Positions 15,645 to 58,507 of a DNA stretch of 64,000 nt are shown here, in pieces; the stretch's first letter is position 1; each line of letters starts with the position of its first letter. A program made the translations under genes and the position numbers. This stretch comes from an uncultured bacterium. GTDB lineage: Bacteria > DRYD01. Where the stretch lies: the NCBI GenBank assembly GCA_937139605.1, contig CAKZQG010000043.1:6692-70691 (forward strand). The letters are read 5' to 3'. The notes under the pieces were generated by a model. It ran no database searches, had not been told where the DNA came from, and saw only the letters and a program-made list of their open reading frames with translations.

Positions 15645-16601
15645 TTAATAAAAAATTCTCCTAATTTTTGAGAAATCTATTACATCCACTTTTTTATTAT
15701 TTATATCATTTTTTATAACTTTAAAAATTAAAAAATTATAATCAGGGATTATTTTATAAAAAATTTCCTCAACCTCTTTATTAACATTATTTTGAGTCTC
15801 TATATATTTTACTTTAATATTTTTTAAATAAGGAGTATAGTCAAAATCAACTAAATCATTTAACAAACTCTTTATAATTTCTTCGCTAAAATTGATAAGG
15901 TAAAAAACCAAAAAATTATAAATAAAACTACCTAAAATACTTATTACTTTTTCTAAATTTTTCAAACTAAAAAAATCTATTATATCTTTAATATCTTCAT
16001 TATATTTTATATCATTAAATTTTTTTAAAATAAATGTCTTTAAAGAAATAGGATAATGATCAAAAATATTTTTATTTTGTTCAAAATAATCTTCTATTTC
16101 ATTAAGTAAATTAATTCCTATGCCTATAATTAGGTTATCTTTAAAAGTTTCTATTAAAATCCCCCCTAACTTATAAATATTATCATTTTCAACTAAAACT
16201 ATATCGTTAGGAAAAATAACCCTTAAATAATTTTTTAAATCATCTTGTAAATTTAAAATTTCATTAAAATTAAAAATAGAACTTAAGTACTTAGAAAAAG
16301 ATAAAATAGACTTTAAAACAATAGTACCGATAAATACAGATATTAAATTAAAATACTTTTTAGGAATTTTTTCAGAAAGGATAGATAAAGGGAAATTAAC
16401 TGATAAATACAATCCTCCTCTAAGGGATACCCAACTTCTATTATTGCTTCCCTTACCTTTATATTGGATAAAAGCATTTACCACGATTATTTTTAATTGA
16501 TTTTGATTTAAATAATTAATTTGTATTTCTTTTTTTAAGTATTCTTGTGTAGAATCTACTGAATTTAGGATTATTTTTGATATTTTAATTGGTTTTACCA
16601 T
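15645..16601 (-). CDS. birA: Biotin--protein ligase (no HTH, monofunctional type)
   Basis: SVDSTQ, QYKGKG..NRSWVS..GGLYLSV, FPNDI, KLGGILIE, IGIGINL. Confidence 0.85.
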   Translation of the reverse strand: MVKPIKISKIILNSVDSTQEYLKKEIQINYLNQNQLKIIVVNAFIQYKGKGSNNRSWVSLRGGLYLSVNFPLSILSEKIPKKYFNLISVFIGTIVLKSILSFSKYLSSIFNFNEILNLQDDLKNYLRVIFPNDIVLVENDNIYKLGGILIETFKDNLIIGIGINLLNEIEDYFEQNKNIFDHYPISLKTFILKKFNDIKYNEDIKDIIDFFSLKNLEKVISILGSFIYNFLVFYLINFSEEIIKSLLNDLVDFDYTPYLKNIKVKYIETQNNVNKEVEEIFYKIIPDYNFLIFKVIKNDINNKKVDVIDFSKIRRIFY

Positions 16602-17515
16602 TAAGAGATTAAAGCATTTTCAAATTTAGAAGATATAATATTTTGAAGATTAAGTTTAATACTAACTGCTCTATGATCACTAGCAACAGTAGCTAACGGA
16701 TTATCATATTTACCTGTTATATCAAAACTACCTTGAACAACATTTAATTTTTCTTTTGCTTTATCATTAAGAAAGATATAATCTAATATATGAGCTCCAT
16801 ATTTAGGGTTATTGCTGTAATGGGTTGGTAAATTAGTTTCCTTAGATAAATTATCTAAATTCCTAGTATCAGTAAAATTAGCATTTTTAATAGTAGAAAT
16901 GGTAGCAGAATCAGGGGAATCATTGAAATCACCCATTAAAATAGCAGGCATATTACCTTTTTTAGCATACTCTATGAGTTTAGCTGCTTCTTTTTGACGT
17001 TGAATATCAGACTCTGGGCCACCCCTCTTAGATTTAAGATGTACTGAAAATATTTTAACATTAAAACCTGGAGCTAATTCTACTATAGCTTCAACAGGCG
17101 GTCTTTTAAAGGTTGTATCATTTTCATGGATATTTACTTTCTTTATAGGAAATTTTTTACTTATCAGCAAAGCTGCAGCTATACCCCTATTATCACTTTT
17201 ACCTACAATAATATTATATTTATCTTTTAAACCTGCTATTCCTAATAACTCTTGTAGTGCTTCTTTATTTTCTACCTCTTGTAAAGCAACTATATCACTA
17301 TTATTTTGTTTTAATATTTCTGCTAACGCTTTTAACTCTTTCTCACGTTTCGGAGGGCCATCATCCTTATTAGGATCATCTACTTTATCAAACAAATTCT
17401 CAACATTATACGTTGTTAATTTTACCTCATTATTTAAGCTATTATTTAAATTATTATTAGTTTTCTTAGAATTCAGCAAATTTATAACATTAGAATTATA
17501 ATTATTAATAATCAT
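16601..17515 (-). CDS. Endonuclease/exonuclease/phosphatase (EEP) family protein with Asn-rich N-terminal leader
   Basis: TYNVENLF, DIVALQEVE, VHLKSK, MGDFND, LDYIF, SDH motifs. ATG at 17515 follows SD GTGAGGT. Confidence 0.85.
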   Translation of the reverse strand: MIINNYNSNVINLLNSKKTNNNLNNSLNNEVKLTTYNVENLFDKVDDPNKDDGPPKREKELKALAEILKQNNSDIVALQEVENKEALQELLGIAGLKDKYNIIVGKSDNRGIAAALLISKKFPIKKVNIHENDTTFKRPPVEAIVELAPGFNVKIFSVHLKSKRGGPESDIQRQKEAAKLIEYAKKGNMPAILMGDFNDSPDSATISTIKNANFTDTRNLDNLSKETNLPTHYSNNPKYGAHILDYIFLNDKAKEKLNVVQGSFDITGKYDNPLATVASDHRAVSIKLNLQNIISSKFENALIS

Positions 17516-17532
17516 AAAAATATACCTCACTA

Positions 17533-17617
17533 AAATTATTTTTCTTAATATTAATATAATCATTTTTAAAAAAAAATCAAATAAAAAATCATAAAAATTA
17601 ACATTTTTTTTACATAT
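17533..17617. repeat. Direct repeat copy 1 flanking hicBA (85 bp)
   Basis: Matches 18156-18238 except two substitutions and an A-tract of 9 vs 7; contains TTAACA-N5-TTTACA at 17598-17614. Confidence 0.9.
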
Positions 17618-17635
17618 TTTTAGCTAATTTTATCA

Positions 17636-17869
17636 CTATTTTAGGGATATCCATTCTTTCAAAGTTATTTCTCGTCCTAAAATTTTTGATACTTCACGCA
17701 ACATAATACGTAATTGAGGAACAGAATACTCTTCATTAGAAGGAATAGCTAAACGATATTCATTATAAACCATATATTGGTGCCTTGTACCAGAAAAAGG
17801 TCCATCAAAACCTAATTGCCGTAGTTTTTTAATAAAATCTCTACGCTTACAAGGAGTCCAACGATTCAT
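17636..17869 (-). CDS. hicA: Type II toxin-antitoxin HicA family toxin
   Basis: IKKLRQLGF.GP.SGTRHQYM (G-x-H catalytic His), 77 aa, basic. Confidence 0.85.
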   Translation of the reverse strand: MNRWTPCKRRDFIKKLRQLGFDGPFSGTRHQYMVYNEYRLAIPSNEEYSVPQLRIMLREVSKILGREITLKEWISLK

Positions 17870-18119
17870 AAACTGGCTCCTTGTTTAAATCAATCCCATC
17901 AATTACTGGCAATTTGTGTTTCATTTTTAATCCTAACCATATCCATTCTTCTAAAGTAGATCTTAAATTGTTTTCACACTCCATTAACGTAGAACCAAAA
18001 GCTACAACACCTGTACAAATAGGAATATACCCTACAAATGTCCCATCTTCCAATTTATCATAAACAGCTTTTTCCATCGCTTGTCTAACATAATCACTAA
18101 ATAAAAATTGAAAACTCAT
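17847..18119 (-). CDS. hicB: Type II toxin-antitoxin HicB family antitoxin (short, no DNA-binding domain)
   Basis: EDGTFVGYIP..GVVAFGSTL.E..NL...LEEW...LP; overlaps hicA and lies upstream of it. Confidence 0.85.
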   Translation of the reverse strand: MSFQFLFSDYVRQAMEKAVYDKLEDGTFVGYIPICTGVVAFGSTLMECENNLRSTLEEWIWLGLKMKHKLPVIDGIDLNKEPVYESLDSL

Positions 18120-18155
18120 TCACTATAACACCTCAATTTAATTACCAATACTTAT

Positions 18156-18238
18156 AAATTATTCTTCTTAATATTAATATAATCATTTTTAAAAAAATCA
18201 AACAAAAAATCATAAAAATTAACATTTTTTTTACATAT
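18156..18238. repeat. Direct repeat copy 2 flanking hicBA (83 bp)
   Basis: Matches 17533-17617; contains TTAACA-N5-TTTACA at 18219-18235. Confidence 0.9.
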
Positions 18239-18348: not shown

Positions 18349-19458
18349 ATGTCAATAAATCCAATTGAATCAAACAACATAAAACCAATATCAGATACCA
18401 AAATACCAGATACCAAAATAAATACTGCAAATAATAATCCTACAACTACTAATAGTGCTATTTCTCCAACAGATACTATAAATACAAATCAAAGTTCTCC
18501 ACAAAATTTATCAGAAAATGTTCAAAATGAAAATACCCAAACTACACAAGAGCCACCTTTAGAAATGAAGCTCCAACAAGCTTTAACAGACAATAACTTA
18601 CCCCTTGAAGAAAAAATAAAACTAATAGATCAATTAATATCCCAAAAAAAACAAGAACTACAAAATATAGATAATGAAATAAATAATTTAAGAAATAATC
18701 CAATGAATACCCCAAATGATCCTGTTGCTCAAAATATTTTAAATATATCAAATCAAAATAAAATATTATCTTTAGAAAATCAAAGAAGTGCAATAAATAA
18801 TCAGATATCAATGTTAGAAGCTACCAAAAATAATCTAATAAATCTAAACAACCAAACCAGAAATTTAGCTTCCCAATTGGATAGTATTAATTCTGCTTAT
18901 GATACAAGCCTTAATCATCTTAAAATACTAAAAGAACAATTACAACAATATCATCAATCAATGGCAGCCAATTACACTAAACAAATAGAGATACTAAATA
19001 ACCAAATTAATCAAATAGAAAAGGAGATCCAAGATCTACTAAATACTCAGCCATCTAACCCTGATGAAGCAAATCAGATAGCACAGCAAATAGCTCAGAA
19101 AAGATCATTACAAGATGTTCTAAAAAACCAACTAGAAGGTACAAAACAACAATTATTTTCATTAAATCAAAATGTTCAACAACAGATAAAAGACTTAGAT
19201 GATCAAATAGCTAATACAATAAAAGAAAAACAATTAAATTATTATCAAAAATGGGCTTTAGATCAATCAATAAGAAGAGAAATAGAAAACATAGTATGGG
19301 GAGAAATGTTAGCTGAAAAAAACCATGTACTTCAGATGTGGAAAATGTATTATGATTATACTCAAAAAGTAAGACAAATGTGGCAAGATATATACACAAA
19401 ACAATTAGCAAATGAAACCTCATTTGTTCAAGCCTGGTCAGCAGTACTAGGAAAATAA
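18349..19458 (+). CDS. Hypothetical Q/N-rich coiled-coil protein with low-complexity N-terminus and Trp/Met-rich C-terminal segment
   Basis: 369-aa ORF with SD GGGGGT; S/T/N/P-rich N-terminus, long heptad-like Q/N/L region, C-terminus QMWKMYYDYTQKVRQMWQDIY...QAWSAVLGK. Confidence 0.8.
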   Translation: MSINPIESNNIKPISDTKIPDTKINTANNNPTTTNSAISPTDTINTNQSSPQNLSENVQNENTQTTQEPPLEMKLQQALTDNNLPLEEKIKLIDQLISQKKQELQNIDNEINNLRNNPMNTPNDPVAQNILNISNQNKILSLENQRSAINNQISMLEATKNNLINLNNQTRNLASQLDSINSAYDTSLNHLKILKEQLQQYHQSMAANYTKQIEILNNQINQIEKEIQDLLNTQPSNPDEANQIAQQIAQKRSLQDVLKNQLEGTKQQLFSLNQNVQQQIKDLDDQIANTIKEKQLNYYQKWALDQSIRREIENIVWGEMLAEKNHVLQMWKMYYDYTQKVRQMWQDIYTKQLANETSFVQAWSAVLGK

Positions 19459-20095: not shown

Positions 20096-21385
20096 ATGAA
20101 AAGAAAATTAAGCATATTTTTAATTATCCTTTTAATTATAATTACAAAATCATTTAGCAATAATAATTTAGATACTAATAATTTAAAAGGAAACATTAAC
20201 TATTTTATTAATCTTTTTTATCTGTATAATCCATATATTAGTAAATATGATTATTTAATTAAAGCAAATACTTACAATGCTAATAGCTTTTTATATTCCA
20301 ATTCCTTTGAATACGGTTTTTCTTTATCTAATATACCTTATAAATACATATTACCTAATAAAGCTGAACCTATGACATCATATACCTTGATGTATTCTAT
20401 TACAAATACCAACAAAAATAAAATAAATTCTAATATTAATTATATTTTAAAACAGAACGATATTATCCAATATGATAAATCAATATACATACTTGAATCT
20501 ACTTATCAAATAAAAAAGAACTTAATAAACATATATTTCCTAAATAATAAAAAAGAAATACTAAATAATATTTTAGATGAATTCTTAAAAATAAAAGAAC
20601 TAACTTCCTTAGATTATACTTATAATAAATCAAAGTTATCGGATATATTAATAATCGATAAAGAAATAACATCCTTAAATACTGAAATAAATTCAATAAA
20701 CTTAGAACTAAATAATAATATTCAAACAATATATTCTTTTATACCTTTAAACGATTTAGAAAACAAAATAAACAAAATCCTAAATAAATTTTATAATAAC
20801 ATAGATTTAAATTTAATAGATAATATCATTAATAACTACAATCCAAATAATTTAGATGAAATATATAATAATCCCTATCTAATTAAATTCCAAAAAGAAA
20901 AAGAGTTAATTTATTATGAAATATATAAAGAATCAAGCGCTAAATTACCGGATAATAAATTCTCTATAGAGTACTCTATAAGACCTCACTTAGATCATAT
21001 GTTTATGCTAAAATATTCAATAATGTTTGAAAATAAAAACATCTCTATAAATAAAATTAGAGCTCTTTATGAAAAAATAAATTCAATAAACTCAGAATAC
21101 ACAAACCAATCCCTTAAATTCAAAATATACTATAACTACATTATACTACAATTAAAAGATTCTAAAATATTATTATCAAATTTAACAAATGAAGAAAAAA
21201 AACAAGAAAAATATATTGAATCTCTAAAACTTGAATATATTTACAATAAATCAAAAATATTAGAAATTTATTTAGCTTATAAAGAATTACTTAATATTAA
21301 ATTAAAAAGAAACGAATTAGAAAATAAGATCTTTGATTTCTTAGTAGATTTACAGTACCTAAAAGGAGTGATAAATTATGAATAA
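20096..21385 (+). CDS. Putative TolC/CusC-like outer membrane efflux protein
   Basis: Signal peptide, two helical repeats each ending in Y..NKSK(L/I)..(I/L)L, first gene before a membrane fusion protein and an RND pump; highly divergent. Confidence 0.6.
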   Translation: MKRKLSIFLIILLIIITKSFSNNNLDTNNLKGNINYFINLFYLYNPYISKYDYLIKANTYNANSFLYSNSFEYGFSLSNIPYKYILPNKAEPMTSYTLMYSITNTNKNKINSNINYILKQNDIIQYDKSIYILESTYQIKKNLINIYFLNNKKEILNNILDEFLKIKELTSLDYTYNKSKLSDILIIDKEITSLNTEINSINLELNNNIQTIYSFIPLNDLENKINKILNKFYNNIDLNLIDNIINNYNPNNLDEIYNNPYLIKFQKEKELIYYEIYKESSAKLPDNKFSIEYSIRPHLDHMFMLKYSIMFENKNISINKIRALYEKINSINSEYTNQSLKFKIYYNYIILQLKDSKILLSNLTNEEKKQEKYIESLKLEYIYNKSKILEIYLAYKELLNIKLKRNELENKIFDFLVDLQYLKGVINYE

Positions 21386-22802
21386 TAATAAAAACCAAAA
21401 ATTATTTCCTTTAATAATAATCATTTTAACAATAATAATTGTTTTTATAATATTTTTTTCAAGCTGTAAAGCAGATAAAAACAATTTAAAAGAAAATCCA
21501 AAAAAAGAAAATTCCATTAAAAATGTAATATACACTTGTCCTATGCATCCTGATATTAAACAAGATAAACCAGGTGATTGCCCCATATGTGGTATGAAAT
21601 TAGTTCCTATCAATCAATCTGATAAAAACACTTATAAACATAAAGATAATACTACCAGCATAATATATACCTGTCCTATGCATCCTGATATTAAACAAGA
21701 TAAACCAGGTGATTGCCCCATATGTGGTATGAAATTAGTTCCTATTAGCAACAAAACTACTACTACTTTAGCAACTTCAAATAATTTAACTGATTCAAAC
21801 AATTTAACAACTTCAACTAATTTAACTTCTCCCACTCATACTGGACATTCTAATTTAACTGATACTAAATTTAATAATAAACTATCTTTTGATAATACAA
21901 TAAAAATTAATTATGATATCAAGCTATACAAGGCAAAATATTTAACATTAAAAAATGAAATAAAATTTAATGGATACACCGCAATAAATGAGTCTAATAA
22001 GAAGTCATTATCATTAAATACAGATGTATGGATAAAAGACACATATAATTTATTTAAAGGCAAATATATAAGAAAAGGTGAGCCTATTTTAAAAATTTAT
22101 AGCCTAGAAATAGAACAAACTAAAAAAGAATTAGAATTAGTAAAAGATAATCCTAAATTAAAAGAAATTGTTTTAAAAAAATTAAATTATTTAAGAATAA
22201 GTTCTTACGGGGATATAGATTCTGATAATATAATAAGATCCCCTTATGATTGTATATTAATAGAAAAACAAGCAAATGAAGGAGATTTAATTAAAGCTAA
22301 TCAAAGTATTTATACTTTTATAATAAACCCTGAAACTTGGATAATAGCAGAGATACCAGTAAGTTATCTAAAAGATATTTACATAGGCAAAAGAGTTTTA
22401 GTAAAAACATACAATGGGGATTCTTTTTATTCTAAAATAGATTACATCTTTCCCAATTCGGATTTTGAGAGTAAAACTATAAAAGTAAGAATAAAATATT
22501 CGTTAAAAGATAGCCAAATAATATTACCCTGGAACTTACCATTAGAAATATCAATACTAAAAACAAAAACAGCTATCTTTGTTCCAATAGATAGCATAAT
22601 AAACAAGGGAGATAAAAAAATAGTGTTTAAGAAAATTGATAATAACGTTTTCAAGCCTGTATATATAAAAGTTAATGAATATTTTGTTTATAATGATGAG
22701 GGATATTATGAAGTAGTAGAGGGATTAAAAGAAGGTGATGAAATAGCATATAGTGGCGTATTCTTATTAGATAGTGAAGCAAGAATAAAAGGAATCTACT
22801 AA
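21378..22802 (+). CDS. cusB: CusB-like RND periplasmic adaptor with two heavy-metal-binding domains
   Basis: Two copies of YTCPMHPDIKQDKPGDCPICGMKLVP; MFP core (W.IAEIP, IDYIFP, TIKVRI, YEVVEGLKEGDEIAYSG.FLLDSE). Confidence 0.88.
   Translation: MNNNKNQKLFPLIIIILTIIIVFIIFFSSCKADKNNLKENPKKENSIKNVIYTCPMHPDIKQDKPGDCPICGMKLVPINQSDKNTYKHKDNTTSIIYTCPMHPDIKQDKPGDCPICGMKLVPISNKTTTTLATSNNLTDSNNLTTSTNLTSPTHTGHSNLTDTKFNNKLSFDNTIKINYDIKLYKAKYLTLKNEIKFNGYTAINESNKKSLSLNTDVWIKDTYNLFKGKYIRKGEPILKIYSLEIEQTKKELELVKDNPKLKEIVLKKLNYLRISSYGDIDSDNIIRSPYDCILIEKQANEGDLIKANQSIYTFIINPETWIIAEIPVSYLKDIYIGKRVLVKTYNGDSFYSKIDYIFPNSDFESKTIKVRIKYSLKDSQIILPWNLPLEISILKTKTAIFVPIDSIINKGDKKIVFKKIDNNVFKPVYIKVNEYFVYNDEGYYEVVEGLKEGDEIAYSGVFLLDSEARIKGIY
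21526..21745 (+). repeat. Intragenic duplication of the metal-binding domain (85 bp x2, period 135)
   Basis: 21526-21610 and 21661-21745 differ at only two synonymous positions. Confidence 0.9.
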
Positions 22803-22852
22803 ATTTATTAAATTTCACTAAATAATTTACCCAAATAAAGTGAGGTGTGTTT

Positions 22853-25800
22853 ATGATAAAATTCTTAGTTAATAATTCCTTCGTTTTTGTATTTATATCC
22901 ATCATTCTGTTTTTTTATTCCATTATTGATTTATTTATCTTAAAGAATTTAAGAATAGATGTTATCCCTGATTTAAGTGATAAGCAAGTTATAATATATA
23001 CAGAATATATGGGGCAAACTCCACAAATAGTACATGATCAAGTTAGCTATGTAATAGCATCAAATATGATGGGCTTACCTGGAGTGAAATCCGTTAGAAG
23101 CTATAGCATGCCTAATTTCTCATTAGTTTATGTTATATTTAATGATAATATAGATATTTATTACGCAAGGAATAGAGTTTTAGAGAGACTAAATACTTTG
23201 AACTTACCTAACGGAGTTACCCCACTCTTAGGGCCTGACGCTACGGGAGTAGGCTGGGCTTATCAATATGTTATTATATCCAATACTAAAAATCTTTCAG
23301 AATTATGGGATTTCCAAAATTTTTATCTAAAATACATCCTATTATCTTTACCAAATGTTTCAGAAGTAGCTTCTGTAGGAGGATATCAAAAAGAATTTAG
23401 AATATTTATAGATCCATATAAATTATATCAATATAAAATAAGCTTAAAAGATATAGTTAATTCAATTGAAAGTAATAATATAAGTGGTAGCGGAAAATAC
23501 TTAGAAATATCAGAAAAACAAGTCCTAATAAACACAAACGGATATATTAAATCAATAAACGATATTATGAAAATTAAGGTTAATAATTTTTTAAAATTAA
23601 GGGATATAGCATATATTTCAGAAGTTCCTGCATTAAGGATGGGAGTAGCTGATTACAATGGAGATGGCCAAGTAGTGGGTGGAATAGTTGTAATAAGATA
23701 TTCCGCAGATACATATAAAACCCTTGAATTAATTAAACAAAAAATTAATGAAATTTCACAAAAATTAAAAGATATCCAGATTATCCCAGTATATGATAGA
23801 AGCATATTAATAGAAGAAACTATAAAAGGATTATTTAAAGATATCATTAAAGAAATGATAATAACTATAATTGTAGTTTCTATATTTTTATATAGTTTAA
23901 GAGGGTCTTTGATTATCTTGTATTTTATGTTATTTAGTACAGTAATTGGGTTATATATTTTTAATTTTAGTGGGATAAATTCTAATATAATGAGTTTAGG
24001 TGGAGTTATGTTAGCTATAGGTACAATGATAGACGCCGGAATCGTTATAACAGAAAACTACTACAGAAATAAAAATAATTATTTACTTATAAATACGTAT
24101 TTAACAAAAATTTACCCCCAATTTATATATAACATCTTTTTAAAAACGGATTACAAAAAAATAAATAGTAGCTTAAATTTATTAGCTCTAGATGTTTCTT
24201 TTAAAGAAGTAGGGATCCCCATTTTTAATGCTTTATTAATTGTAGCCTTATCATTTCTACCGTTTATGTTTTTACATGGACAAACAGGTAAATTATTCTC
24301 CCCATTAGTAATAACTAAAACTTTATTAATGCTTATAGGAGCATTATTCTCCATTTTCTTAGTTATTCCATTAATAAAGATCATTTCACCTATCACTAAT
24401 AAATTTATTCTAAAAATAAAAGAAGAATTAATAAATATAATATTTGAGAAAATATACGAAATAATTTTTAAGATAGTAATGAAATTATGGGTAGTTTTTG
24501 CTGTTATACCTATTTTAGCATGGTTTTTATTTTTTAATTATATAAGTAGTTTAAAAACAGAGTTTATGCCGTATTTAAGAGAATATACTTTAATGTATAT
24601 GCCAACAACTATACCAAGTATATCAATTGATACCGCTTATAAAATACTACAATATCAAGACAAAATAATAAAAAGCGTATATGAAGTTGATAAGGTTTTT
24701 GGGAAAGCAGGTAGAGCTAATTCTGCAACTGATCCTGCTCCATTATCCATGATTGAAACTATTATAACATTAAAACCTAAAGACCAATGGCGAAAAAATT
24801 TAACCTATGAAGATATTATAAATGAACTAGATTCTAAATTACAGATCCCTGGAGTAGTAAATGGTTGGACCCAACCAATAAAAGGTAGAATAGATATGGT
24901 AACAACAGGCATAAGAACACCCTTAGGAATAAAAATTTATTCAGATAACTTAGATAACTTATTTAATATGTCAATTAAAATAGAAAATAATCTAAAAAAA
25001 TTAGATGAATTTATAACGGTATATGCTGAAAAAAGCGCTATTCATCCATACTTAGTAATAAATTACAACCGAGATAAATTATTCCAATACAATCTTAATA
25101 TTAATGATATCCAAGAATATTTTGATTATTTATTTTTAAATAAACCAGTTAGTACAGTAATAGATGGTATAAAAAGATATAATATCTCCTTAAGTGTAGA
25201 TGAAAATTATAAAAATAATCTCCTTAATTTTCCATTATATATTAATAATGAAATTATAAGATTAAGTGACGTATGTGATATAAAATTCCAAGAGAGTTTT
25301 TCAGAGATAAAATTTGAAAACGGTTTTTTTGTTAATTATATCTATTTGGTTCCTAAAAAAGGGGTTGATTTAAATTTACTAATAAAAAAGATAGATAAAG
25401 TTTTAAATGATTTATTAACAAAAGAAAATGGCACATATTTTTATGAATATAGTGGGGATTTTAAGTACTGGTTGGATACTATAAACAGTCTAAAATTAGT
25501 ACTACCCTTAGTTTTTATAATTATAGTTTTATTGGTTTATATAACATTTAATGATATAAAGGATGTTTTATTAGTATTTTACTTATTACCTTGTTCATTA
25601 ATAGGAAGTGTAATTATAATGAAATTATTAAATTATAATTTATCAGTAGCAAGTATAGCAGGGATAGTAGCAACCTTAGGAATTTCTGTTGAAATGCTAA
25701 TCATAATGATATTATATATAAAAAACAGTTTAAAATATGCAAAAGATATAAAGCAAGGGATATTTGAGGGAGCAGTAAAAAGAGTAAGACCTAAATTAAT

Positions 25801-26011
25801 GACTGCTATTGTAATAATAGCTTCACTAACTCCGATTTTATACAGTCAAGAAATGGGTAGCGAAGTATTATCTAAGATAGTAGCCCCGATGATAGGAGGA
25901 ACTATCTCCTCTTTTATAACCGCCTTAATTTTCATACCACCTATCTATTTATTATTAAACATTAAAAAAACATTAAAAATATCTCAAAAGAAATTGTTAA
26001 AAATTAGTTAA
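22853..26011 (+). CDS. cusA: CusA/CzcA family heavy-metal RND efflux permease, probably Cu(I)/Ag(I)
   Basis: DVIPDLSDKQVIIYT, LGPDATGVGW, GAVKRVRPKLMT; Met residues at the three CusA-type metal-site contexts (LMYMPT, PLSMIET, RIDMVTTG). ATG at 22853 follows SD GAGGTG. Confidence 0.92.
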   Translation: MIKFLVNNSFVFVFISIILFFYSIIDLFILKNLRIDVIPDLSDKQVIIYTEYMGQTPQIVHDQVSYVIASNMMGLPGVKSVRSYSMPNFSLVYVIFNDNIDIYYARNRVLERLNTLNLPNGVTPLLGPDATGVGWAYQYVIISNTKNLSELWDFQNFYLKYILLSLPNVSEVASVGGYQKEFRIFIDPYKLYQYKISLKDIVNSIESNNISGSGKYLEISEKQVLINTNGYIKSINDIMKIKVNNFLKLRDIAYISEVPALRMGVADYNGDGQVVGGIVVIRYSADTYKTLELIKQKINEISQKLKDIQIIPVYDRSILIEETIKGLFKDIIKEMIITIIVVSIFLYSLRGSLIILYFMLFSTVIGLYIFNFSGINSNIMSLGGVMLAIGTMIDAGIVITENYYRNKNNYLLINTYLTKIYPQFIYNIFLKTDYKKINSSLNLLALDVSFKEVGIPIFNALLIVALSFLPFMFLHGQTGKLFSPLVITKTLLMLIGALFSIFLVIPLIKIISPITNKFILKIKEELINIIFEKIYEIIFKIVMKLWVVFAVIPILAWFLFFNYISSLKTEFMPYLREYTLMYMPTTIPSISIDTAYKILQYQDKIIKSVYEVDKVFGKAGRANSATDPAPLSMIETIITLKPKDQWRKNLTYEDIINELDSKLQIPGVVNGWTQPIKGRIDMVTTGIRTPLGIKIYSDNLDNLFNMSIKIENNLKKLDEFITVYAEKSAIHPYLVINYNRDKLFQYNLNINDIQEYFDYLFLNKPVSTVIDGIKRYNISLSVDENYKNNLLNFPLYINNEIIRLSDVCDIKFQESFSEIKFENGFFVNYIYLVPKKGVDLNLLIKKIDKVLNDLLTKENGTYFYEYSGDFKYWLDTINSLKLVLPLVFIIIVLLVYITFNDIKDVLLVFYLLPCSLIGSVIIMKLLNYNLSVASIAGIVATLGISVEMLIIMILYIKNSLKYAKDIKQGIFEGAVKRVRPKLMTAIVIIASLTPILYSQEMGSEVLSKIVAPMIGGTISSFITALIFIPPIYLLLNIKKTLKISQKKLLKIS

Positions 26012-32894: not shown

Positions 32895-35150
32895 TTACCT
32901 TACCTCTTTCCAGTTAGTTATTCTTATAGATCTTGGAGTAGAAATATAACTTAAATTTATTCCATTAATATTAATAGTATTAGTTAAAGCAGTAATTGAA
33001 TTACCAGTTAAATCATTAGTAGTAGTAGTTCTCATAGAAGCCGGAACTATTATTTCAATTTTATAAGCTAAGGAAGCTCCTTTCATTTTAGGAGTACCTG
33101 TATTTTGCCAAACACCATTATTAATTCTGTATTGAACAAAATTAGAATTAGAAGGCCAAAAATTAAATTCTACTATCAAAGAGCCAGGCATTGGATTAGT
33201 TAATTGATTAGTAGAAACCCAAACAGGATTTCCTCCATTAAAACTATTAGCCATATATATTTTTAAATCATAACCATTAGAGTTTCCATTAATTGTTAAA
33301 GTAGCTTGTTTAATATAAAATCTTCCTCTATTGTAATTATAAGCATCCTGATCACTACCAACTAATGATATAAAATCCTTAGATTCCAAAATAAATCTAT
33401 CAGCATTAATATAATTATTCCCTAATTGTTCAAAAGTAAATAAAGTTCGCGAATGATTACCATCAGTAGCAACTATATCAAAAGCACTAGGATTAGATAA
33501 ATTCATAATAGATAGCCCATCAAAATCTGCATTTAGATTATCATTAGTTAATGCATATTGTCCTAAGAAATAACCTTTAAATTTTACATTGGTATTGCTT
33601 CCTTGATTAACTGAAGAATTAATAAAAGTATAAATCCTACCCCCAGGTTTAGATAAAACAACATTATTCCTATCTTTAAACATAATAGAGTAATTACTCA
33701 TATTAGAAGGAGAATAATTCCAATTATCAGTAGTTATAGATATATCTAATCTTCCATCGCGATTAAAATCAACTAATGTTATATTATTAGCAGCACCAAC
33801 ATACTCCGGATTGGGTGGGTTATTTGGATTACTTGAATTTACTTGAGTATTAGGGCCCTTATAATCCATACTTTCTACTACATTAGTATTCCTACTTGGA
33901 TTATTCTGATTATTTTTTGTATATAATGATATAACATTTTGTCCATTACTTAAAAACGGAGAATTATTATTAGTATTGGGAGTAGAATTAGGATTAAAAT
34001 TAGGATTACCTTTAAATATTTTAATATCAGGACTATCAGTATTAGCTACAACTAAATCAATTGTTCCATCATTATCTATATCCCCTAAATCTATTACCAA
34101 ATTACCCTTTTTGCCATTATTAAAACCAGTTGATAAACCTGTTTGATTTGAAGTCATTATTTTTATAGGATTTCCAAAAGTTATAGTATTAGATCCTGGA
34201 GTAGTTGTATTAGGAACATACCATATATTCCCATCTGCTCCCGCTATTATAATATCTTCTCTATTATCATTATTAAAGTCAATAGGAACTCTTCTTACGT
34301 TTCCATCTTGAACAATAAGAGCACGTGATTTCACAGCATCCGAAGTCCATTGAACATAAACTCGATCCCAAGTAGTCCCAGTAGAACTACCAGGAGTTAT
34401 AGTATTAATTTGATTAAAACTAAGATTACCTATATTATCTATTCTCCCACTTATACTATAAGCTCCCTCTATTTTTGAATAAGTATTATCAGGTTCATTA
34501 GAACCTATAACAAAAATATCAGGAATATTATCATTATTAAAATCTCCAATAGTAGCTGCATTAAAATTATGATTTATCCCACTATTTGTATAATCTGCTA
34601 TCTGAATTACATTAATATTGCTCCCCTGCTTTACTATTTTATTTATTTTTCTATTAAAAGTAATCCCTATACCAAATGAAGGGGTTAAAGTTGAATCCCA
34701 TAACACTATAGCATTATAATTCCCTCCGGGATTAATTAAAGAAGGAGCACTAAAATTAAAGTCAGTTACCACTTGAGAAAATTGCAAAGAATACCAAGTT
34801 CCATTTGATCTTACAAACCAAACATTAGGAACTCTATTTGAATTCAATATAGCATATGCATCCCTTAGCAAACTATTATTAAATACATTATACGGGTAAA
34901 TAATGTTATTAGTTGCTCCACTTGGTAAATTTATATTAGCTCCAATAATATCATTAACTCCTAAAAAATTAGAGTAATTACTTAAATAATTAGTGGGTAT
35001 TGTATTAACGTAGCTAGAAAAATTAGAATTTAAGAAACCAGGGGCATCTTTTACAGCATCAACTCCTGCTAAGGAAAATCTAAAAAAAATCGCAATAACT
35101 AAAATCATAAATATAGATAGTATGTAGAACCTCAAGATAAAATTTTTCAT
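32895..35150 (-). CDS. Secreted FG-GAP/VCBS-repeat protein, putative PilY1-like pilus tip adhesin
   Basis: Signal peptide; GDFNNDNIPDI, DFNNDNREDII, GDIDNDGTIDLVV, DFNRDGRLDI repeats; C-terminal ITNWKEVR like the SWRE ending of PilY1; first gene of a minor-pilin operon. Confidence 0.65.
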   Translation of the reverse strand: MKNFILRFYILSIFMILVIAIFFRFSLAGVDAVKDAPGFLNSNFSSYVNTIPTNYLSNYSNFLGVNDIIGANINLPSGATNNIIYPYNVFNNSLLRDAYAILNSNRVPNVWFVRSNGTWYSLQFSQVVTDFNFSAPSLINPGGNYNAIVLWDSTLTPSFGIGITFNRKINKIVKQGSNINVIQIADYTNSGINHNFNAATIGDFNNDNIPDIFVIGSNEPDNTYSKIEGAYSISGRIDNIGNLSFNQINTITPGSSTGTTWDRVYVQWTSDAVKSRALIVQDGNVRRVPIDFNNDNREDIIIAGADGNIWYVPNTTTPGSNTITFGNPIKIMTSNQTGLSTGFNNGKKGNLVIDLGDIDNDGTIDLVVANTDSPDIKIFKGNPNFNPNSTPNTNNNSPFLSNGQNVISLYTKNNQNNPSRNTNVVESMDYKGPNTQVNSSNPNNPPNPEYVGAANNITLVDFNRDGRLDISITTDNWNYSPSNMSNYSIMFKDRNNVVLSKPGGRIYTFINSSVNQGSNTNVKFKGYFLGQYALTNDNLNADFDGLSIMNLSNPSAFDIVATDGNHSRTLFTFEQLGNNYINADRFILESKDFISLVGSDQDAYNYNRGRFYIKQATLTINGNSNGYDLKIYMANSFNGGNPVWVSTNQLTNPMPGSLIVEFNFWPSNSNFVQYRINNGVWQNTGTPKMKGASLAYKIEIIVPASMRTTTTNDLTGNSITALTNTININGINLSYISTPRSIRITNWKEVR

Positions 35151-42786: not shown

Positions 42787-45700
42787 TTAATTCAACATAT
42801 TATTAATAGAATTTAATTTAGCTTTAACAATCCCTATCATTAATCCTTCTTTTCCATAAATAACAATAATATTATTTTTAAAACTCCAACTAAAAATTAT
42901 TCCATTTTCTAACTCTTCATAATAATTATTTATGTCTTTTATAAATTCATATAATTCAGATAAATAACTTATATTTTTATCTTTAAAGACACTATCATTA
43001 CTAAAATAATCCCCAAAATTACTATCTTTAATAACAGCTACTCCATCAATCTTAGGATTATTAATAATATTAAAAATATCCATAGATACTTTATCTAATT
43101 CTTGATTTTTATTCAATTTAATTTCACTTTCTTTAATAGGACTTTCTTTAATAGGAATTAAATCAAGATTTAATTCCTGTTTTAAAAATTGATCTACTTC
43201 AGATTTTATTTCTTTACTTAATTCTAAATCATTTTGTTTAATATCTTCTTTTAACTCAACTCCTTCTTTAAATTCAACTGATTCAATATTTATGTCTTCC
43301 ATACTACTAATTTCTGTATTAGCAATTCCATCTAAATCATTGCTACCTATACTATCTAAATTAATATCATCTAAATTAATATTATCTAAATTAATATTAT
43401 CCAAATTAAGATCATCTAAATTAATATTATCTAAATCTAAAGAATCTATATCTAAATTGAGATTTATATCTACATCAACTTTTTGAGCTTCTTCAAAAAA
43501 TATCTCTTCATCTATATCTATTTTTAATATATCTTTATCTTTTTGTTCAAAAATTTTCTCATCATAAAAAATCTCTTTTTTAATTTCTTCTTTTGTATCT
43601 GGCAATCCTATTTTTCTTATTTCTTCTACTTTTCCAATTTCATTTAGTTCCTTATCTAGTATTTCTTTATTAAATATATCAACTCCATTCATTTTTTGTT
43701 CTTCTTTATTATCAGATAAAAATTGTTTTTGTGATTCTTCCTCGTTTAATATTAACTCTTTTTGTAAATTAATAGCAGCTGGATTAGCATCAGCTACTTG
43801 TGAAAAATCTATTGAATCTATTGAATCTATTGAATCTATTGAAATGCTTCCTAAATTTTCAATCTGTTCTATTTCCTGATTAATTGTTTTTTCAGCATTT
43901 ACTTGCTCAATTTCTTCGGTTATTTCATATTGCTTATTATCAATAATATTTTCTAAATCAAAAGTTGTTTCTATATTGCTAATATCAATATTAGCTAAAT
44001 CATTTCCAAGTAAATTAGATAATTCTAATTCATTTATTTTTTTCACTTCATCCTTATAAGTATTATCAAATTTTTTTATACTATCTTCTTCAAAAATATT
44101 AACTAAATTGCTATCCTTATTAAAACCACTTTTATCTAATTCTTTACTATATTCATTATCAACAAAAGAAATATTTTCCTCAATTATTTTTTGGCTATTA
44201 TCTTCATCCTTAAAAACAATTTCTTCTTTTATTATCTCATCTTTAATTATTTCTTTTTGACTAATATCGTTATAATTACTATCAAGTCCAATATCATTAG
44301 CTTGATCTTTAAAATCATATGTAGCTGTTTCCTCTTTAATAAATAATTCTTGTTTTATATCAAAATTTAAATTAATCTCTTCTATATTTAAGCTAATGTC
44401 TTTTAAATTAACGTTTTCTATTTTTTGTATTACATCTTCTTCCTTTTCCAATTCATTTATTATACTAAAATCTATATCTAAATTAAATTTATTTTTTTGA
44501 TTATTATCAATTATTTCTAGTTTTTGTTGTTCATTAATATCTTTAAATTCTTGGAATTTCTCAATTTGTTCTAATTTCTCAATCATTTCTACTTTCCCAA
44601 TTTGTTCAGACTCACCAACTTGTTCTAACTTCTTAGTATGCTCTGAATTCTCAATTTGCCCTAATATTTGGTTAATTTCTTCAATTTTCCTTAATTTTTC
44701 AGTTTGACTTAATTCCCCTACTTGCTCTAACTCTTCAATTTGCTTCACTTCTTGCTTTTCCTTCTCTATTTGTTCTATTTTATCTGTTTGATCTAAACTT
44801 TCAATCTGTTTTAAGTTTTCTATTTGTTCTATTTTCTCAGCTTGTTCTACTTTCTCTTCTTGTTCTAAACTTTCAATCTCTTTTAAGTTTTCTATTTGTT
44901 CTATTTTCTCTTCTTGTTCTATTTTCTCTTCTTGTTCTAAACTTTCAATCTCTTTTAAGTTTTCCATTTGTTCTATTTTCTCAGCTTGTTCTACTTTCTC
45001 TTTTTGTTCTAAACTTTCAATCTGTTTTAAGTTTTCCATTTGTTCTATTTTCTCAGCTTGTTCTACTTTCTCTTCTTGTTCTAAACTTTCAATCTCTTTT
45101 ATTTTCTCAACTTGTTCCATACCTTCAATTTGTTCTATTTTCTCTGTTTGTATTAAGCTTTCAATTTGCTCTAAAGGCTGTTCTATCTTTTTAATTTGTT
45201 CCAGCTTCTCAATTTGGTCTATCTTTTCAACTTTTTCTAAGTCTTGAATTTGTTTTAAATTTTCAGGTTGTTCTAATTTTTCATGCGATTCTTTTAGTTG
45301 ATCCTTTTCAGTTTCAATTACTTGAGATAATTCAGAAGCTTCCTGTTTTACTTCAATATGCAACTTAGTAAATTCATCTCTTAACTTTTGTAGAAAAACA
45401 TTAAAATTAAGCAATTCATCATAAATAAAATTAATAACAATATAATTATTAAGTATGCCTAAATTATTATCATTAAAAATTATTTGCTTAAAATAAGGGT
45501 CTAAGGAAGCAAAAATCTTTTCATATATCCTTTTTACTTTATTAATTTTCTTAGGCTCTTCAGAATAATATTTTTTTTCTTTAAAAGAATTAATTATATC
45601 CATTGGATTATCAATAACTAATTCAATTTCATTTCTTTTCTTTTCGTCTTCAAAAGGAATTATTTCATTAATATTAGATATTAACTTTGCTTTTAGTTCA

Positions 45701-46062
45701 GTTTTTATTTTAACTAATTGCTCCAAATTTTGATTTACATTTTCAATAATAATATTAATCTCATTTAAATTTAAAGTTTGTAATAAAGCAATATCTTGAG
45801 ATTCTAGATTATCAAAAAACGAATCTTTTTTAGCAGCATATTTTTTATAAAACTCCAAAATATTTAAAAACTTTGTTAAATTATTATTAAATAACTCCAA
45901 TTGAGTTTGATTAAATATACTATAAGAAATTTCTTTAATAAAATTAACAAATTCAGAATCTATAAAATAATTAAATAAAATATTAACTGAAAAAAGTTTA
46001 GGTAATTCTAGGATTTCTTGATTATAAAAAATATCATTATTAAAATTAAGGATATTAATCAC
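42787..46062 (-). CDS. Large, highly acidic, repeat-containing hypothetical protein
   Basis: 1091 aa, E/D/I/Q-rich; 24-aa tandem repeats, (LDNIN)n repeats, small globular C-terminal domain. Confidence 0.8.
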   Translation of the reverse strand: MINILNFNNDIFYNQEILELPKLFSVNILFNYFIDSEFVNFIKEISYSIFNQTQLELFNNNLTKFLNILEFYKKYAAKKDSFFDNLESQDIALLQTLNLNEINIIIENVNQNLEQLVKIKTELKAKLISNINEIIPFEDEKKRNEIELVIDNPMDIINSFKEKKYYSEEPKKINKVKRIYEKIFASLDPYFKQIIFNDNNLGILNNYIVINFIYDELLNFNVFLQKLRDEFTKLHIEVKQEASELSQVIETEKDQLKESHEKLEQPENLKQIQDLEKVEKIDQIEKLEQIKKIEQPLEQIESLIQTEKIEQIEGMEQVEKIKEIESLEQEEKVEQAEKIEQMENLKQIESLEQKEKVEQAEKIEQMENLKEIESLEQEEKIEQEEKIEQIENLKEIESLEQEEKVEQAEKIEQIENLKQIESLDQTDKIEQIEKEKQEVKQIEELEQVGELSQTEKLRKIEEINQILGQIENSEHTKKLEQVGESEQIGKVEMIEKLEQIEKFQEFKDINEQQKLEIIDNNQKNKFNLDIDFSIINELEKEEDVIQKIENVNLKDISLNIEEINLNFDIKQELFIKEETATYDFKDQANDIGLDSNYNDISQKEIIKDEIIKEEIVFKDEDNSQKIIEENISFVDNEYSKELDKSGFNKDSNLVNIFEEDSIKKFDNTYKDEVKKINELELSNLLGNDLANIDISNIETTFDLENIIDNKQYEITEEIEQVNAEKTINQEIEQIENLGSISIDSIDSIDSIDFSQVADANPAAINLQKELILNEEESQKQFLSDNKEEQKMNGVDIFNKEILDKELNEIGKVEEIRKIGLPDTKEEIKKEIFYDEKIFEQKDKDILKIDIDEEIFFEEAQKVDVDINLNLDIDSLDLDNINLDDLNLDNINLDNINLDDINLDSIGSNDLDGIANTEISSMEDINIESVEFKEGVELKEDIKQNDLELSKEIKSEVDQFLKQELNLDLIPIKESPIKESEIKLNKNQELDKVSMDIFNIINNPKIDGVAVIKDSNFGDYFSNDSVFKDKNISYLSELYEFIKDINNYYEELENGIIFSWSFKNNIIVIYGKEGLMIGIVKAKLNSINNMLN
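43354..43435 (-). repeat. 15-nt tandem repeats encoding LD(N/D)(I/L)N pentapeptides
   Basis: Repeated atctaaattaatatt-like units on the plus strand. Confidence 0.75.
44770..45110 (-). repeat. 72-nt intragenic tandem repeat, about 5 units
   Basis: Anchor (t/a)tctaaactttcaatct recurs at 44791, 44863, 44935, 45007, 45079; unit KEIESLEQEEKVEQAEKIEQMENL. Confidence 0.88.
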
Positions 46063-56674: not shown

Positions 56675-57413
56675 AAAATTAAATATAAAAGAAATCATAA
56701 TAGACATAGGGTTAGATGAAGTAGGTAGAGGCTCATTATTTGGCCCCTTAGTTATAGCTTCATTTATGATAATTAAAATTGATAATAAAAATCCTTATCA
56801 AAAAATTGAACTAAAAGATAGTAAAAAACTAACTTATAATCAAAGATTAGATTTATTTAAAAAAATAATAAATATAATAAAAAATAATAAAGATATTTCT
56901 AAAATCTATTTTTGCTTCATTTCAAATGATATCATAGATAAAATCAATATACTAAATGCAAATTTACTAGGGTTTGAAAAATTAATTATTCAAAATTTAA
57001 AAAATATTTTAAATAATAAAGTAATTGTCAAAAATATAAATAAGGTAAAACATATTAATTTTTATATAGATGGAGATAAAAAACCTAAGGATATAGAAAA
57101 TAAAATTCAAGAATTTTTAAAAACTTATCATAGTTTTGAAATGCTAAAAAATAAAATAAATATATTAAATTATATTAAGGGAGATAGTAATATAAAGGTT
57201 ATCCAGGCAGCAGCGATTTTAGCCAAAGTAACAAGAGATAAATACATACAATATTTATCTAAAAAATATCCAATTTATGATTCCCGCTATAATTTATATA
57301 ATAACAAGGGCTACTATGAAGAAGCTCATATTAAAGGTATAAAAAATTATGGTTTAACAATTTACCACCGGAAATCCTTCTTAAAAAAATATCTTCAACA
57401 AACCCTTTTTTAA
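56658..57413 (+). CDS. rnhB: Ribonuclease HII
   Basis: GLDEVGRGSLFGPLV, KDSKKL, IDG, KGD...IQAAAILAKVTRD, NKGY, HRKSF. Confidence 0.93.
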   Translation: MKKNNKKLNIKEIIIDIGLDEVGRGSLFGPLVIASFMIIKIDNKNPYQKIELKDSKKLTYNQRLDLFKKIINIIKNNKDISKIYFCFISNDIIDKINILNANLLGFEKLIIQNLKNILNNKVIVKNINKVKHINFYIDGDKKPKDIENKIQEFLKTYHSFEMLKNKINILNYIKGDSNIKVIQAAAILAKVTRDKYIQYLSKKYPIYDSRYNLYNNKGYYEEAHIKGIKNYGLTIYHRKSFLKKYLQQTLF

Positions 57414-57463
57414 GTAATATGATTCTTCGGAATTATACAATGCTAGTTAAGTTAGCAGAAGTA

Positions 57464-58507
57464 TTAAGCAATAGTAGGATTTACAGAAGTTTTTTCAAAT
57501 AACTTCATAACAGGAATAATAGCTATATTAGCAAATAATTTAGTAAGTCCAATATCCTTTAATTTATTAGCAATAAAGTCCCAGGCTCCAATTAAGCCTA
57601 AGATTCCTCCTACTATAGTTCCGACAGCTGCACCTACTGGTCCCCCTATAGCTGTTCCAATAGCAGCTAAAGCAACAGTTCCACCTATATCTAACACTTT
57701 TCTTATAATCAAATCAGCCAAATCAACTCCTTTTTCTTGTATAGGTTTATTGCTTATCAATATGTCCACAACTTGCTTAATAGATAATATAGCATCTAGA
57801 GCTTTTCCAATAATACCTGCTACCTTAGCAAATGGTCTTAATTTAGTCATAATTTTTTTAGTCATATCTGAAAGCATCTGAGTTACTTTATTATTTAATA
57901 TCTTTTTTATTGCTGGGAATTTTTTAGCCAATTCTTTTGATAACTCTGCCATTTTGGTTCCTACTTTCCCAAGTTTTTTAATTTTTTTAAATACCCTACT
58001 CACTTGTTGACAACCATCTAAAAGTCCTCTTATAGAATTAGCTAAATCTGGAAACGCTTGTTTTAACGTAATTACTCCATTTACTACATCTTCCAAATCT
58101 GTTGTTTTTTGTAATAATTCCATTGTTTTGTTTAAAGTAGTAGCTTGCTCAATAGAAGATACTTTATTACTTGCTGCTTCTAATATCTGAATTATTTGGT
58201 TCTTAATCTCTTCTGCTTTAGATTTTAATTGATTTTCATCTACCTCATTTGCATTTTGGTTACTCTCTAGTCTATTTGCTAAATCCAAAATATCTTCTTT
58301 ATTTTCCAGTTTATTTGTTTCTATTGAAGATAATGCGCTTTCATAATTAGAAACTAAACTTCCTTGTTTTCTCAAGCCTTCTTTTAAATCCGCTCTATAA
58401 GAAACATTATCTTTTTTATTTGTTTTATTTTTATTCCTGTTTATATTTTGATTATTATCAATAATAGCATAATCAGAAATACTTGGTCTAAAATCTATAC
58501 TATCTAT
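57464..58507 (-). CDS. Hypothetical protein with amphipathic helices and a C-terminal Gly-rich hydrophobic hairpin (pore-former/translocator-like)
   Basis: Frame open from 58507 (ATA, just after SD GGGGGGAGG) through the ORF-track segment 57464-58375; GGTVALAAIGTAIGGPVGAAVGTIVGGILGLIG near the C-terminus. The start is uncertain. Confidence 0.7.
   Translation of the reverse strand: MDSIDFRPSISDYAIIDNNQNINRNKNKTNKKDNVSYRADLKEGLRKQGSLVSNYESALSSIETNKLENKEDILDLANRLESNQNANEVDENQLKSKAEEIKNQIIQILEAASNKVSSIEQATTLNKTMELLQKTTDLEDVVNGVITLKQAFPDLANSIRGLLDGCQQVSRVFKKIKKLGKVGTKMAELSKELAKKFPAIKKILNNKVTQMLSDMTKKIMTKLRPFAKVAGIIGKALDAILSIKQVVDILISNKPIQEKGVDLADLIIRKVLDIGGTVALAAIGTAIGGPVGAAVGTIVGGILGLIGAWDFIANKLKDIGLTKLFANIAIIPVMKLFEKTSVNPTIA

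Follow-up and report, generated by a model that had tools for sequence, protein, structure and literature searches.

A direct-repeat box connects a flagellin-less basal body with proteins bearing polar N-terminal leaders in a phylum-level bacterial lineage

Introduction

Can proteins that begin with a polar, low-complexity leader and carry no signal peptide be cargo of an export apparatus derived from the flagellum? The question is raised by a 64,000-nucleotide stretch of DNA (the window; C43:6692-70691, forward strand of contig CAKZQG010000043.1) from an uncultured bacterium, whose 1.88-Mb assembly (GCA_937139605.1, here G000) comprises 45 contigs at ~24% G+C. A preliminary description of the window singled out three proteins for such leaders: an EEP-family nuclease/phosphatase and two proteins named here after the first positions of their genes, 18349 and 57464. 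It also noted a sequence box that they appeared to share with the gene for the flagellar MS-ring protein FliF. Here, we propose that these three unrelated proteins belong to one regulon of ~50 promoters marked by the direct repeat TGTWAAW-N4-TGTWAAW. The same box precedes core export operons (fliF, flhBA and SLT-fliK-X-flgE), type IV pilins, hydrolases without signal peptides (S8, C11, M14 and EEP) and helical or glycine-zipper proteins. We tentatively suggest that, for part of this set, the flagellar export gate may read the leader as a signal for Sec-independent export, with the basal body working as a secretion machine.

The lineage is represented in our genome library by 11 species in three genera; a phylum-level search returns the same 11 genomes, and no library genome falls between the ranks 'same order' and 'same domain'. 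Open reading frames (ORFs) were called genome-wide and their starts picked by the strength of the Shine-Dalgarno (SD) sequence, yielding 1550-1672 proteins depending on the length cut-off.

Results

Polar leaders stand out in an AT-rich proteome

The genes for the three proteins lie in the window as follows.

16601-17515, minus strand: EEP-family nuclease/phosphatase, 304 aa (Pfam PF03372 Exo_endo_phos, E 1.7e-18)
18349-19458, plus strand: 18349 protein, 369 aa, phylum-wide, N-terminus MSINPIESNNIKPISDTK
57464-58507, minus strand: 57464 protein, 347 aa, all-helical, with a disordered leader, Lys-rich helices and C-terminal Gly/Ala-rich hydrophobic helices

We scored leaders by the combined fraction of N, S, T, I and P in residues 2-31 (NSTIP), against a background of 1550 ORF-derived proteins from the same genome (mean 0.35, sd 0.105, 95th percentile 0.53, 99th percentile 0.60), the commonest residues of this proteome being I, L, K and N. 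The EEP protein scores 0.67 (99.4th percentile), the 18349 protein 0.77 (99.8th) and the 57464 protein 0.57 (96th). By the Kyte-Doolittle scale the first 45 residues of all three lack a hydrophobic segment, the highest 12-residue means being 0.16, -0.18 and 0.18, respectively. AlphaFold assigns a predicted local distance difference test score (pLDDT) <50 to the first 68 residues of the 18349 protein and the first 71 of the 57464 protein. Because they combine these percentiles with the lack of any hydrophobic stretch, the leaders count as unusual even in an AT-rich proteome, and the polar, signal-peptide-free character first ascribed to all three N-termini is borne out against the organism's own background.

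The N-termini themselves are those read in the preliminary description. For EEP, the SD sequence (GTGAGG, at 9 nt) and the promoter select the ATG at 17515, giving the N-terminus MIINNYNSNVINLL; a longer ORF beginning at 17563 was rejected, as its ATG falls within the -10 element of the promoter. The 18349 N-terminus is as quoted there. In the 57464 gene the first canonical start is TTG 58375, and an in-frame ATA at 58507 directly follows the SD sequence GGGGGGAGGA. The corresponding codon is ATG in nine orthologues, whose N-termini read M[DEN][SE]I[DN]FR from there, and because they start exactly at the position of ATA 58507, the N-terminus read from it is right. The public 361-aa call of this gene is an artefact that reads TGA as Trp.

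A direct-repeat box marks export, pilin and hydrolase genes

The strict form of the box, TGTAAAA-N4-TGTTAAT, occurs 14 times where ~1 occurrence is expected, and a weight matrix finds 13 sites of at least 20 bits where 0-1 are expected. Three genes, fliF, EEP and 57464, have a strict box 69-82 nt ahead of them, always in the same orientation. The only box of the 18349 gene is a divergent copy, part of a duplicated EEP promoter that now stands before a hicB-like gene. The claim that all three proteins sit beside the same box as fliF is right for EEP and 57464, but 18349 is merely the divergent neighbour of the duplicate.

37435-37452, minus strand: fliF box, TGTAAAAAAGATGTTAAT, 81 nt upstream of fliF
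17597-17614, minus strand: box copy 1, TGTAAAAAAAATGTTAAT, 82 nt upstream of the EEP start
58581-58598, minus strand: 57464 box, TGTAAAATTTTTGTTAAT, ~70 nt upstream of the ATA start
18218-18235, minus strand: box copy 2 (the duplicate), with hicB 99 nt downstream and, on the opposite strand, the 18349 gene 114 nt away

Strict or matrix sites precede fliF, flhBA, EEP, hicB (the duplicated copy), the 57464 gene, two pilin-like genes and the genes for an HD-GYP protein and a 97-aa protein. The box is best read as a direct repeat with 11-bp phasing, because the EEP promoters of a second genus (g2) carry TGTAAAA-N4-TGTAAAA. Its generalised form, TGTWAAW-N4-TGTWAAW, has 59 sites genome-wide against 3-8 in Markov shuffles; 53 of the 59 are intergenic (11.7% of the genome; 0.3 expected); these occur in both orientations, and their median distance to the nearest start is 85 nt. 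The fliF box is conserved at loci L013 and L010 and at the genus g2 locus L027, and the EEP box is conserved in L013 and, as TGTAAAA-N4-TGTAAAA, in g2. Genus g2 keeps the box upstream of both fliF and flhB, and a second family has it near flhB. The SLT-fliK-flgE operon is preceded, at 83 nt, by an inverted copy.

The enzymes of the regulon include an S8 subtilase, a C11 clostripain-like peptidase, an M14 carboxypeptidase, an SLT protein, a PAD-type deiminase and EEP; pilins and several Gly-zipper or Q/N coiled-coil proteins of no known family are further members. The S8 subtilase has no signal peptide. Its MDINPI N-terminus is conserved phylum-wide, and the long region ahead of its catalytic domain is likely a pro-domain.

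The pattern of the box points to a WalR/PhoB-type operator, presumably bound by an OmpR-family response regulator. A candidate is the OmpR/PhoB-family protein encoded at C24:8825-9526, whose best model is YycF at 274.8 bits, below the equivalog cut-off of 340; no WalK-type kinase is recognised beside it, the next gene encoding 391 aa. We rejected a sigma-54 or sigma-28 promoter as the identity of the box: spacing and bases misfit, and sigma-70-like -35/-10 elements follow it.

Leaders are enriched among box genes

We define a box gene as one with a generalised site 30-150 nt upstream, which gives 55 genes. Thirteen of them have an NSTIP of at least 0.56, against 52 of 1617 others (odds ratio (OR) 9.3, Fisher p 5.6e-8; Mann-Whitney U (MWU) p 7e-4). 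The association holds among genes with an upstream intergenic region of at least 100 nt and a strong SD sequence (OR 9.4, p 2.4e-6), when limited to soluble N-termini, and after removal of the preliminary description's own examples (9/50, OR 6.6, p 5e-5). Among the genome's ten most extreme leaders, half (5/10) are box-associated. Whole-protein composition, by comparison, does not differ between box genes and others (p 0.10): the compositional signature is confined to the N-terminus of the regulon proteins. A start motif, M[DES][IF][ND], which was chosen post hoc, begins 6 of 55 box genes and 16 of 1617 others, and is common to FliK (MEIN) and an FlgJ-like protein (MDFN).

A basal body and export core with no recognised flagellin or stator

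The window holds one flagellar gene.

35729-37354, minus strand: FliF, the MS-ring protein, GTG start (Pfam YscJ_FliF, E 8e-23; YscJ_FliF_C, E 1.6e-25)

It looked orphaned because the flagellar genes of this genome are scattered, dispersed among housekeeping genes. FlhA (a 762-bit match) and FlhB are encoded on contig C8, FliM-FliN-FliO-FliP-FliQ on C4, FliR on C12, FliG on C28, FliH on C37 and FliI-FliJ on C45, with FliJ and FliO identified by Pfam. Contig C11 encodes FlgB, FlgC, two FlgF/G-like rod proteins and a rod-binding protein that we take, from its sequence, to be FlgJ-like. A hook operon (G000 C44:3214-6164) encodes an SLT protein, FliK, a 203-aa coiled-coil protein and a 269-aa FlgE/F/G-type protein (a short FlgE); no FlgD is recognised in it. 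In size this 'hook' protein resembles a rod protein, and the external part may be very short. The preliminary description had made its export model depend on a type III gate and ATPase, and both are encoded (FlhA/B, FliP/Q/R and FliI/H/J). FlhB carries NPVH in place of NPTH. The substrate-switch pair FliK and FlhB is retained, and no known late substrate is detectable.

Flagellin (PF00669) has a best E of 0.14 in this genome and is found in 0/11 genomes of the phylum, while controls and outgroups score. MotB (PF13677) is likewise found in 0/11, with four flagellated controls positive, and E. coli MotA/B queries have no match in the genome; nor were FlgK/L, FlgD or chemotaxis proteins found there. 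FliF and FlhA, by contrast, are each present in 11/11. With MS ring, C ring, rod and hook represented and flagellin and stator missing, the inventory is not that of a functional motility flagellum. It describes a hook-basal body that is conserved, non-motile and equipped with an intact export core, and the phylum-wide absence of flagellin and stator fits an export role.

Leader-bearing proteins could also leave the cell by another Sec-independent route, such as type I secretion, vesicles, regulated lysis or an unrecognised system, and the window does contain an RND/TolC-like efflux set, read from ORFs 20096-26011. We consider this improbable: type I signals are C-terminal, whereas the feature shared here is N-terminal, and a survey covering the type VI secretion system (T6SS) sheath and WXG100 proteins found the sheath in 0/11 genomes and no WXG100 protein above cut-off.

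The three proteins differ in conservation

The EEP match to PF03372 scores 67.6 bits (cut-off 24.5) and covers profile positions 2-225 of 225. The ExeM/NucH extracellular nuclease model (NCBIfam NF033681) gives only 38.9 bits against a cut-off of 300, and a search of PDB sequences returns no match. EEP occurs in 11/11 genomes, in each with a paralogue, and its ~28-aa, N-rich leader is found only in this genus. Several observations count against this enzyme as cargo. Orthologues in genus g2 retain the box but have no leader, beginning MIIKLASYN or MISKIKLASYN, a few residues before the catalytic domain. Two species of one genus also have markedly different leaders, the one in the congeneric G002 containing a tandem NTQFVNK duplication. 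The leader is a recent low-complexity add-on, which makes EEP a poor cargo candidate.

Between EEP and the 18349 gene lies a hicB cassette.

17847-18119, minus strand: hicB-like antitoxin gene (UPF0150; Pfam PF21748, E 7.6e-27)

The cassette (17533-18238, with a small downstream ORF) is flanked by two copies of the 84-bp EEP promoter and its box. In the relative L013, which has no cassette, EEP and the 18349 coiled-coil gene are direct divergent neighbours across one 124-nt intergenic region with a single box. The cassette looks like an insertion that duplicated its target. At two genus g2 loci (L018 and L019; G003:C6 and G004:C22), the gene that diverges from EEP on the other side of the box instead encodes an S8 subtilase without a signal peptide; its orthologue in the present genome, C29:7889, bears an N-rich leader.

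The 18349 protein has a conserved leader. Alignment and the AlphaFold model divide it into a conserved stretch of ~16 residues, a hypervariable disordered linker to residue ~68, a long helical hairpin and a W-rich C-terminal domain. Only 12 homologues were found, spread over 11/11 genomes, with N4 and P5 invariant and the leader conserved across the orthologues. The W-rich domain is strongly conserved and also occurs as stand-alone 99-aa proteins across the phylum. Two of these are encoded in tandem at G000 C27:10619-10918 and 11288-11587, each with its own box 84 nt upstream. Remote homologues of this domain amount to five cluster representatives in a set of 1.84 billion proteins, none of them apparently from outside the lineage. 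Searches of the whole protein gave no family (Pfam, NCBIfam), fold or profile match beyond generic coiled coils.

In the 57464 family, too, the first ~10-16 residues are conserved ahead of a variable linker, as in the 18349 family, and orthologues within one genus retain the leader. Weighing against the cargo idea, the family is confined to genus g1 (2/11 genomes), is split in G002 and has ATA at the start in the present genome; 57464 behaves as an accessory gene in decay. The AlphaFold model has an overall pLDDT of 63 and no Foldseek match at E <=0.001; Pfam and NCBIfam give no match either. A PDB profile search returns designed coiled coils only, with no similarity to colicins or to pore-formers among type III secretion system (T3SS) translocators. 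A look-alike at C44:28094 was rejected as a paralogue, having no sequence similarity, and we regard the two as analogues. Upstream of the 57464 gene lie ~390 nt of non-coding DNA (58508-58900), relatively G+C-rich around 58700-58880, in which no tRNA was found and nothing reached the gathering score of an Rfam family.

The three proteins are unrelated and have very different histories, which counts against the triad as a set. Co-occurrence with FliF, which the preliminary description had suggested checking, is complete for EEP and 18349 (11/11 each) but not for the 57464 family. If any of the three are cargo, 18349, which occurs throughout the phylum, and 57464, which is specific to one genus, make better candidates than EEP.

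There is a further explanation. The leaders might be functional disordered tails of proteins that stay on the cytoplasmic face of the envelope, as coiled-coil scaffolds or C-terminally anchored, under a WalR-like envelope and division regulon. The box is of WalR type, and WalR regulons govern envelope remodelling; the 18349 protein has a long helical hairpin and occurs in every genome; and the C-terminal Gly-rich hydrophobic helices of the 57464 protein and of its analogue C44:28094 are possible anchors. FliF, a membrane protein not exported by the T3SS, itself has a polar, P/T/R-rich N-terminal tail similar to the leaders. Set against this, the regulon includes enzymes of usually extracytoplasmic families (S8, C11, M14 and SLT) without Sec signals, and a phylum-wide, filament-less export apparatus would be left unexplained. 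We judge this explanation unlikely.

The preliminary description went further and cast the nuclease, a translocon-like filament and a pore-former as one cargo set of a FliF-based injection system, working alongside type IV pili in predation or parasitism that depends on contact. Pilin genes do carry the same box, and the genome is small and AT-rich. But the apparatus is of flagellar type (FlgB/C/F/G, FlgE and FliK) rather than an injectisome, and no observation connects it with predation. The three families are not found together (11/11, 11/11 and 2/11), and the fold searches of 18349 and 57464 gave no structural similarity to translocators, tip proteins or colicins, which leaves the filament, translocon and pore-former identities without a match. 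With EEP leaderless in the sister genus as well, we regard this model as very improbable.

Other box sites and neighbouring genes

Further box-type sites in the window lie upstream of pilin-like genes, and a conserved ORF precedes fliF.

35249-35266 and 35311-35328, plus strand: two box-type sites, inverted, upstream of the 751-aa first gene (32895-35150, minus strand) of a pilin-like operon
60943-60960, minus strand: box-type site, inverted, 114 nt upstream of a pilin-like gene (61050-61568, plus strand)
37490-38686, minus strand: 398-aa ORF without a match in Pfam or NCBIfam, immediately preceding fliF in every case (L010, L013 and L027; both genera examined)

The 398-aa ORF is a possible lineage-specific partner of the MS ring. 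At 42787-46062 (minus strand) a 1091-aa protein with long E/K/Q-rich repeat arrays (EKIEQ/LEQ units) and DxDxINLD repeats adjoins an HTH-DUF4912 gene, and its synteny with fliF is kept in the congeneric L010.

Elsewhere in the genome, seven box-type sites crowd into 1.3 kb without an ORF of at least 60 aa (G000 C26:50598-51882), together with other short repeats (ttgacttttgtcaa); this could be an operator array or a decoy, or something else. A SigH-like sigma factor (G000 C37:6679-7551; NF006148, 298.8 bits against a cut-off of 208) has a Lys-rich N-terminal extension, and a box-type site precedes its gene by 126 nt. In combination with the WalR-type box and strong GGAGG/GGGGG SD sequences, it gives the lineage a Firmicutes-like regulatory flavour.

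Discussion

Our data describe a regulon that joins flagellar export genes, type IV pilins and a set of proteins with distinctive N-termini. The proposal that some of these proteins are cargo stands above mere compositional coincidence because five features come together: a phylum-wide export core without motility genes, three co-regulated export operons, an enrichment specific to the N-terminus, exoenzyme domains without Sec signals, and the lack of T6SS and WXG100 proteins. FliK, the sole non-axial known substrate, has an N-rich leader of its own (NSTIP 0.53, 93rd percentile).

Much weighs against this proposal. The strict box (11 genes) gave no group-wide shift in leader composition (MWU p 0.21), and the box was generalised, to a form taken from orthologous promoters of another genus, after that test had failed to show one. 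In the proteome, 28 proteins have an NSTIP of at least 0.57 and no hydrophobic segment, among them, by Pfam, acetyl-CoA synthetase (Acs), RsmH, RluD, RecG, topoisomerase I (TopA), Cas4, a ParA-like NTPase and a Ser/Thr kinase, all clearly cytoplasmic and outside the regulon, as well as a PilZ and a RelA/SpoT protein. The leaders are not specific to exported proteins. The preliminary description would have abandoned its model if such leaders were equally common on cytoplasmic enzymes; they do occur there, but values of 0.67-0.77 are rare and box genes are 9-fold enriched. Rod and hook proteins, which are certain substrates, score only 0.13-0.40. The regulon also holds cytoplasmic proteins (endonuclease V, the SigH-like sigma factor and the HD-GYP protein) and Sec-type pilins, and co-regulation therefore does not imply export. 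No conserved linkage ties leader genes to flagellar loci, the shared box being their only connection. FlgH/I (L/P ring) were not found, leaving no evident route across the outer membrane, and an E. coli FlgN query for a type III chaperone had no match (FliS and FliT were not searched). Finally, every leader and box statistic depends on heuristic gene calls and start sites, in an assembly that is 88.5% complete.

Several of these points would suit a reading in which the leaders are non-functional low-complexity extensions, produced by AT bias and slippage in poorly constrained, lineage-specific genes, on proteins that remain cytoplasmic or in the inner membrane and share no more than transcriptional control through the box. 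Such extensions might be expected in a 24% G+C genome rich in I, L, K and N, and many box genes have no family match. The EEP leader, missing in g2 and duplicated in tandem in G002, the hypervariable linker of 18349, and the leaders on RecG, RsmH, RluD, Acs and TopA are all of a kind with them. What speaks against this reading is that the enrichment is restricted to the N-terminus, that it survives controls for intergenic length and SD strength, and that the extreme N-terminal residues are conserved in two families. We consider neutral extension a possible account of the leaders, if a somewhat doubtful one.

Taken together, the earlier cargo idea gains circumstantial support: the gate and ATPase are present and leaders are enriched at box genes, but EEP lacks its leader in the sister genus and similar leaders adorn cytoplasmic enzymes. 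We tentatively favour the view that the flagellar T3SS exports part of the box-plus-leader set, while rating its chances as short of even. A broader model is more doubtful still. It would make the non-motile flagellum a dedicated type III secretion machine throughout the phylum, controlled together with type IV pili by a WalR-like regulator, and secreting cargo of diverse families (Sec-less hydrolases, coiled-coil and glycine-zipper proteins) by disordered, NSTIP-rich leaders that often begin M-[D/E/S]-[I/F]-[N/D].

Export by a partial flagellum has been proposed before. Buchnera aphidicola basal bodies keep the export machinery without flagellin or motility genes, and an export role has been proposed for them but not proven (PMC8109811). 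The present lineage likewise retains flagellar type III export and basal-body genes without flagellin or motility genes. Buchnera, however, is a reduced insect endosymbiont within a flagellated family, whereas here we see a free-living, phylum-level lineage of 11 species, with fully dispersed genes and no L/P ring genes found. In Campylobacter jejuni, N-terminal signals direct the non-flagellar Cia and FspA proteins out of the cell by way of the flagellar T3SS (PMC2764114, PMC5223770). Both cases involve cargo that lacks a Sec signal, an N-terminal sequence and a flagellar gate, although in our case the likeness is read from sequence. C. jejuni has a complete, motile flagellum and its secretion was demonstrated experimentally, while the apparatus described here has no filament or stator and its export role is a prediction.

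On the regulatory side, the closest parallel is WalRK (YycFG/VicRK) of Firmicutes. The B. subtilis WalR binding motif, TGTWAH-N5-TGTWAH (PMC9210968), is a direct repeat identical in form to our box and has 83 sites in the present genome. WalR-type sites and ours lie ~60-140 nt upstream of starts, the candidate OmpR-family regulator is closest to YycF, and a wall-active SLT protein belongs to the regulon. The differences are as clear: no WalK is recognised adjacent, the regulon is far larger for the size of the genome, and basal-body operons and pilins are not classical WalR targets. Because the candidate regulator scores below the YycF cut-off (274.8 against 340), this is not a proven WalR regulon.

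CtrA of Alphaproteobacteria, which recognises TTAA-N7-TTAA, controls class II flagellar genes and pilA. The two systems share an OmpR-family site type with 11-bp phasing, a box with both halves TGTTAA contains TTAA-N7-TTAA, and in both cases early flagellar genes of the fliF type and pilins appear to be controlled together. The likeness is one of analogy only: there is no evidence of orthology, and the CtrA model scores below the YycF, RpaB, MtrA and PhoB models.

Abby and Rocha concluded in 2012 that the non-flagellar T3SS evolved from the flagellum (PMC3459982). Retention of the export core after loss of motility, as seen here, corresponds to the first step postulated in that work. No recruitment of a secretin or needle was seen (SctC and SctF were not searched), and rod, hook and FliK are still flagellar. 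In the strict sense, the present system belongs with none of these: not with Buchnera, Campylobacter, WalR or CtrA, nor with the injectisome step.

Independent of secretion, three features of this lineage rest on sequence evidence and are apparently undescribed in the literature: a phylum-wide basal body without flagellin, a regulon of ~50 promoters with a clean direct-repeat operator, and an N-terminus-specific compositional signature tied to that regulon. If the export proposal is true, the lineage would offer a natural example of the proposed step from flagellum to injectisome in a free-living, deep-branching group, an ancient counterpart of the first injectisome step with an identifiable secretome. 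It would also provide a tractable list of candidate substrates together with a candidate signal, and a case in which a WalR-type regulator controls surface organelles.

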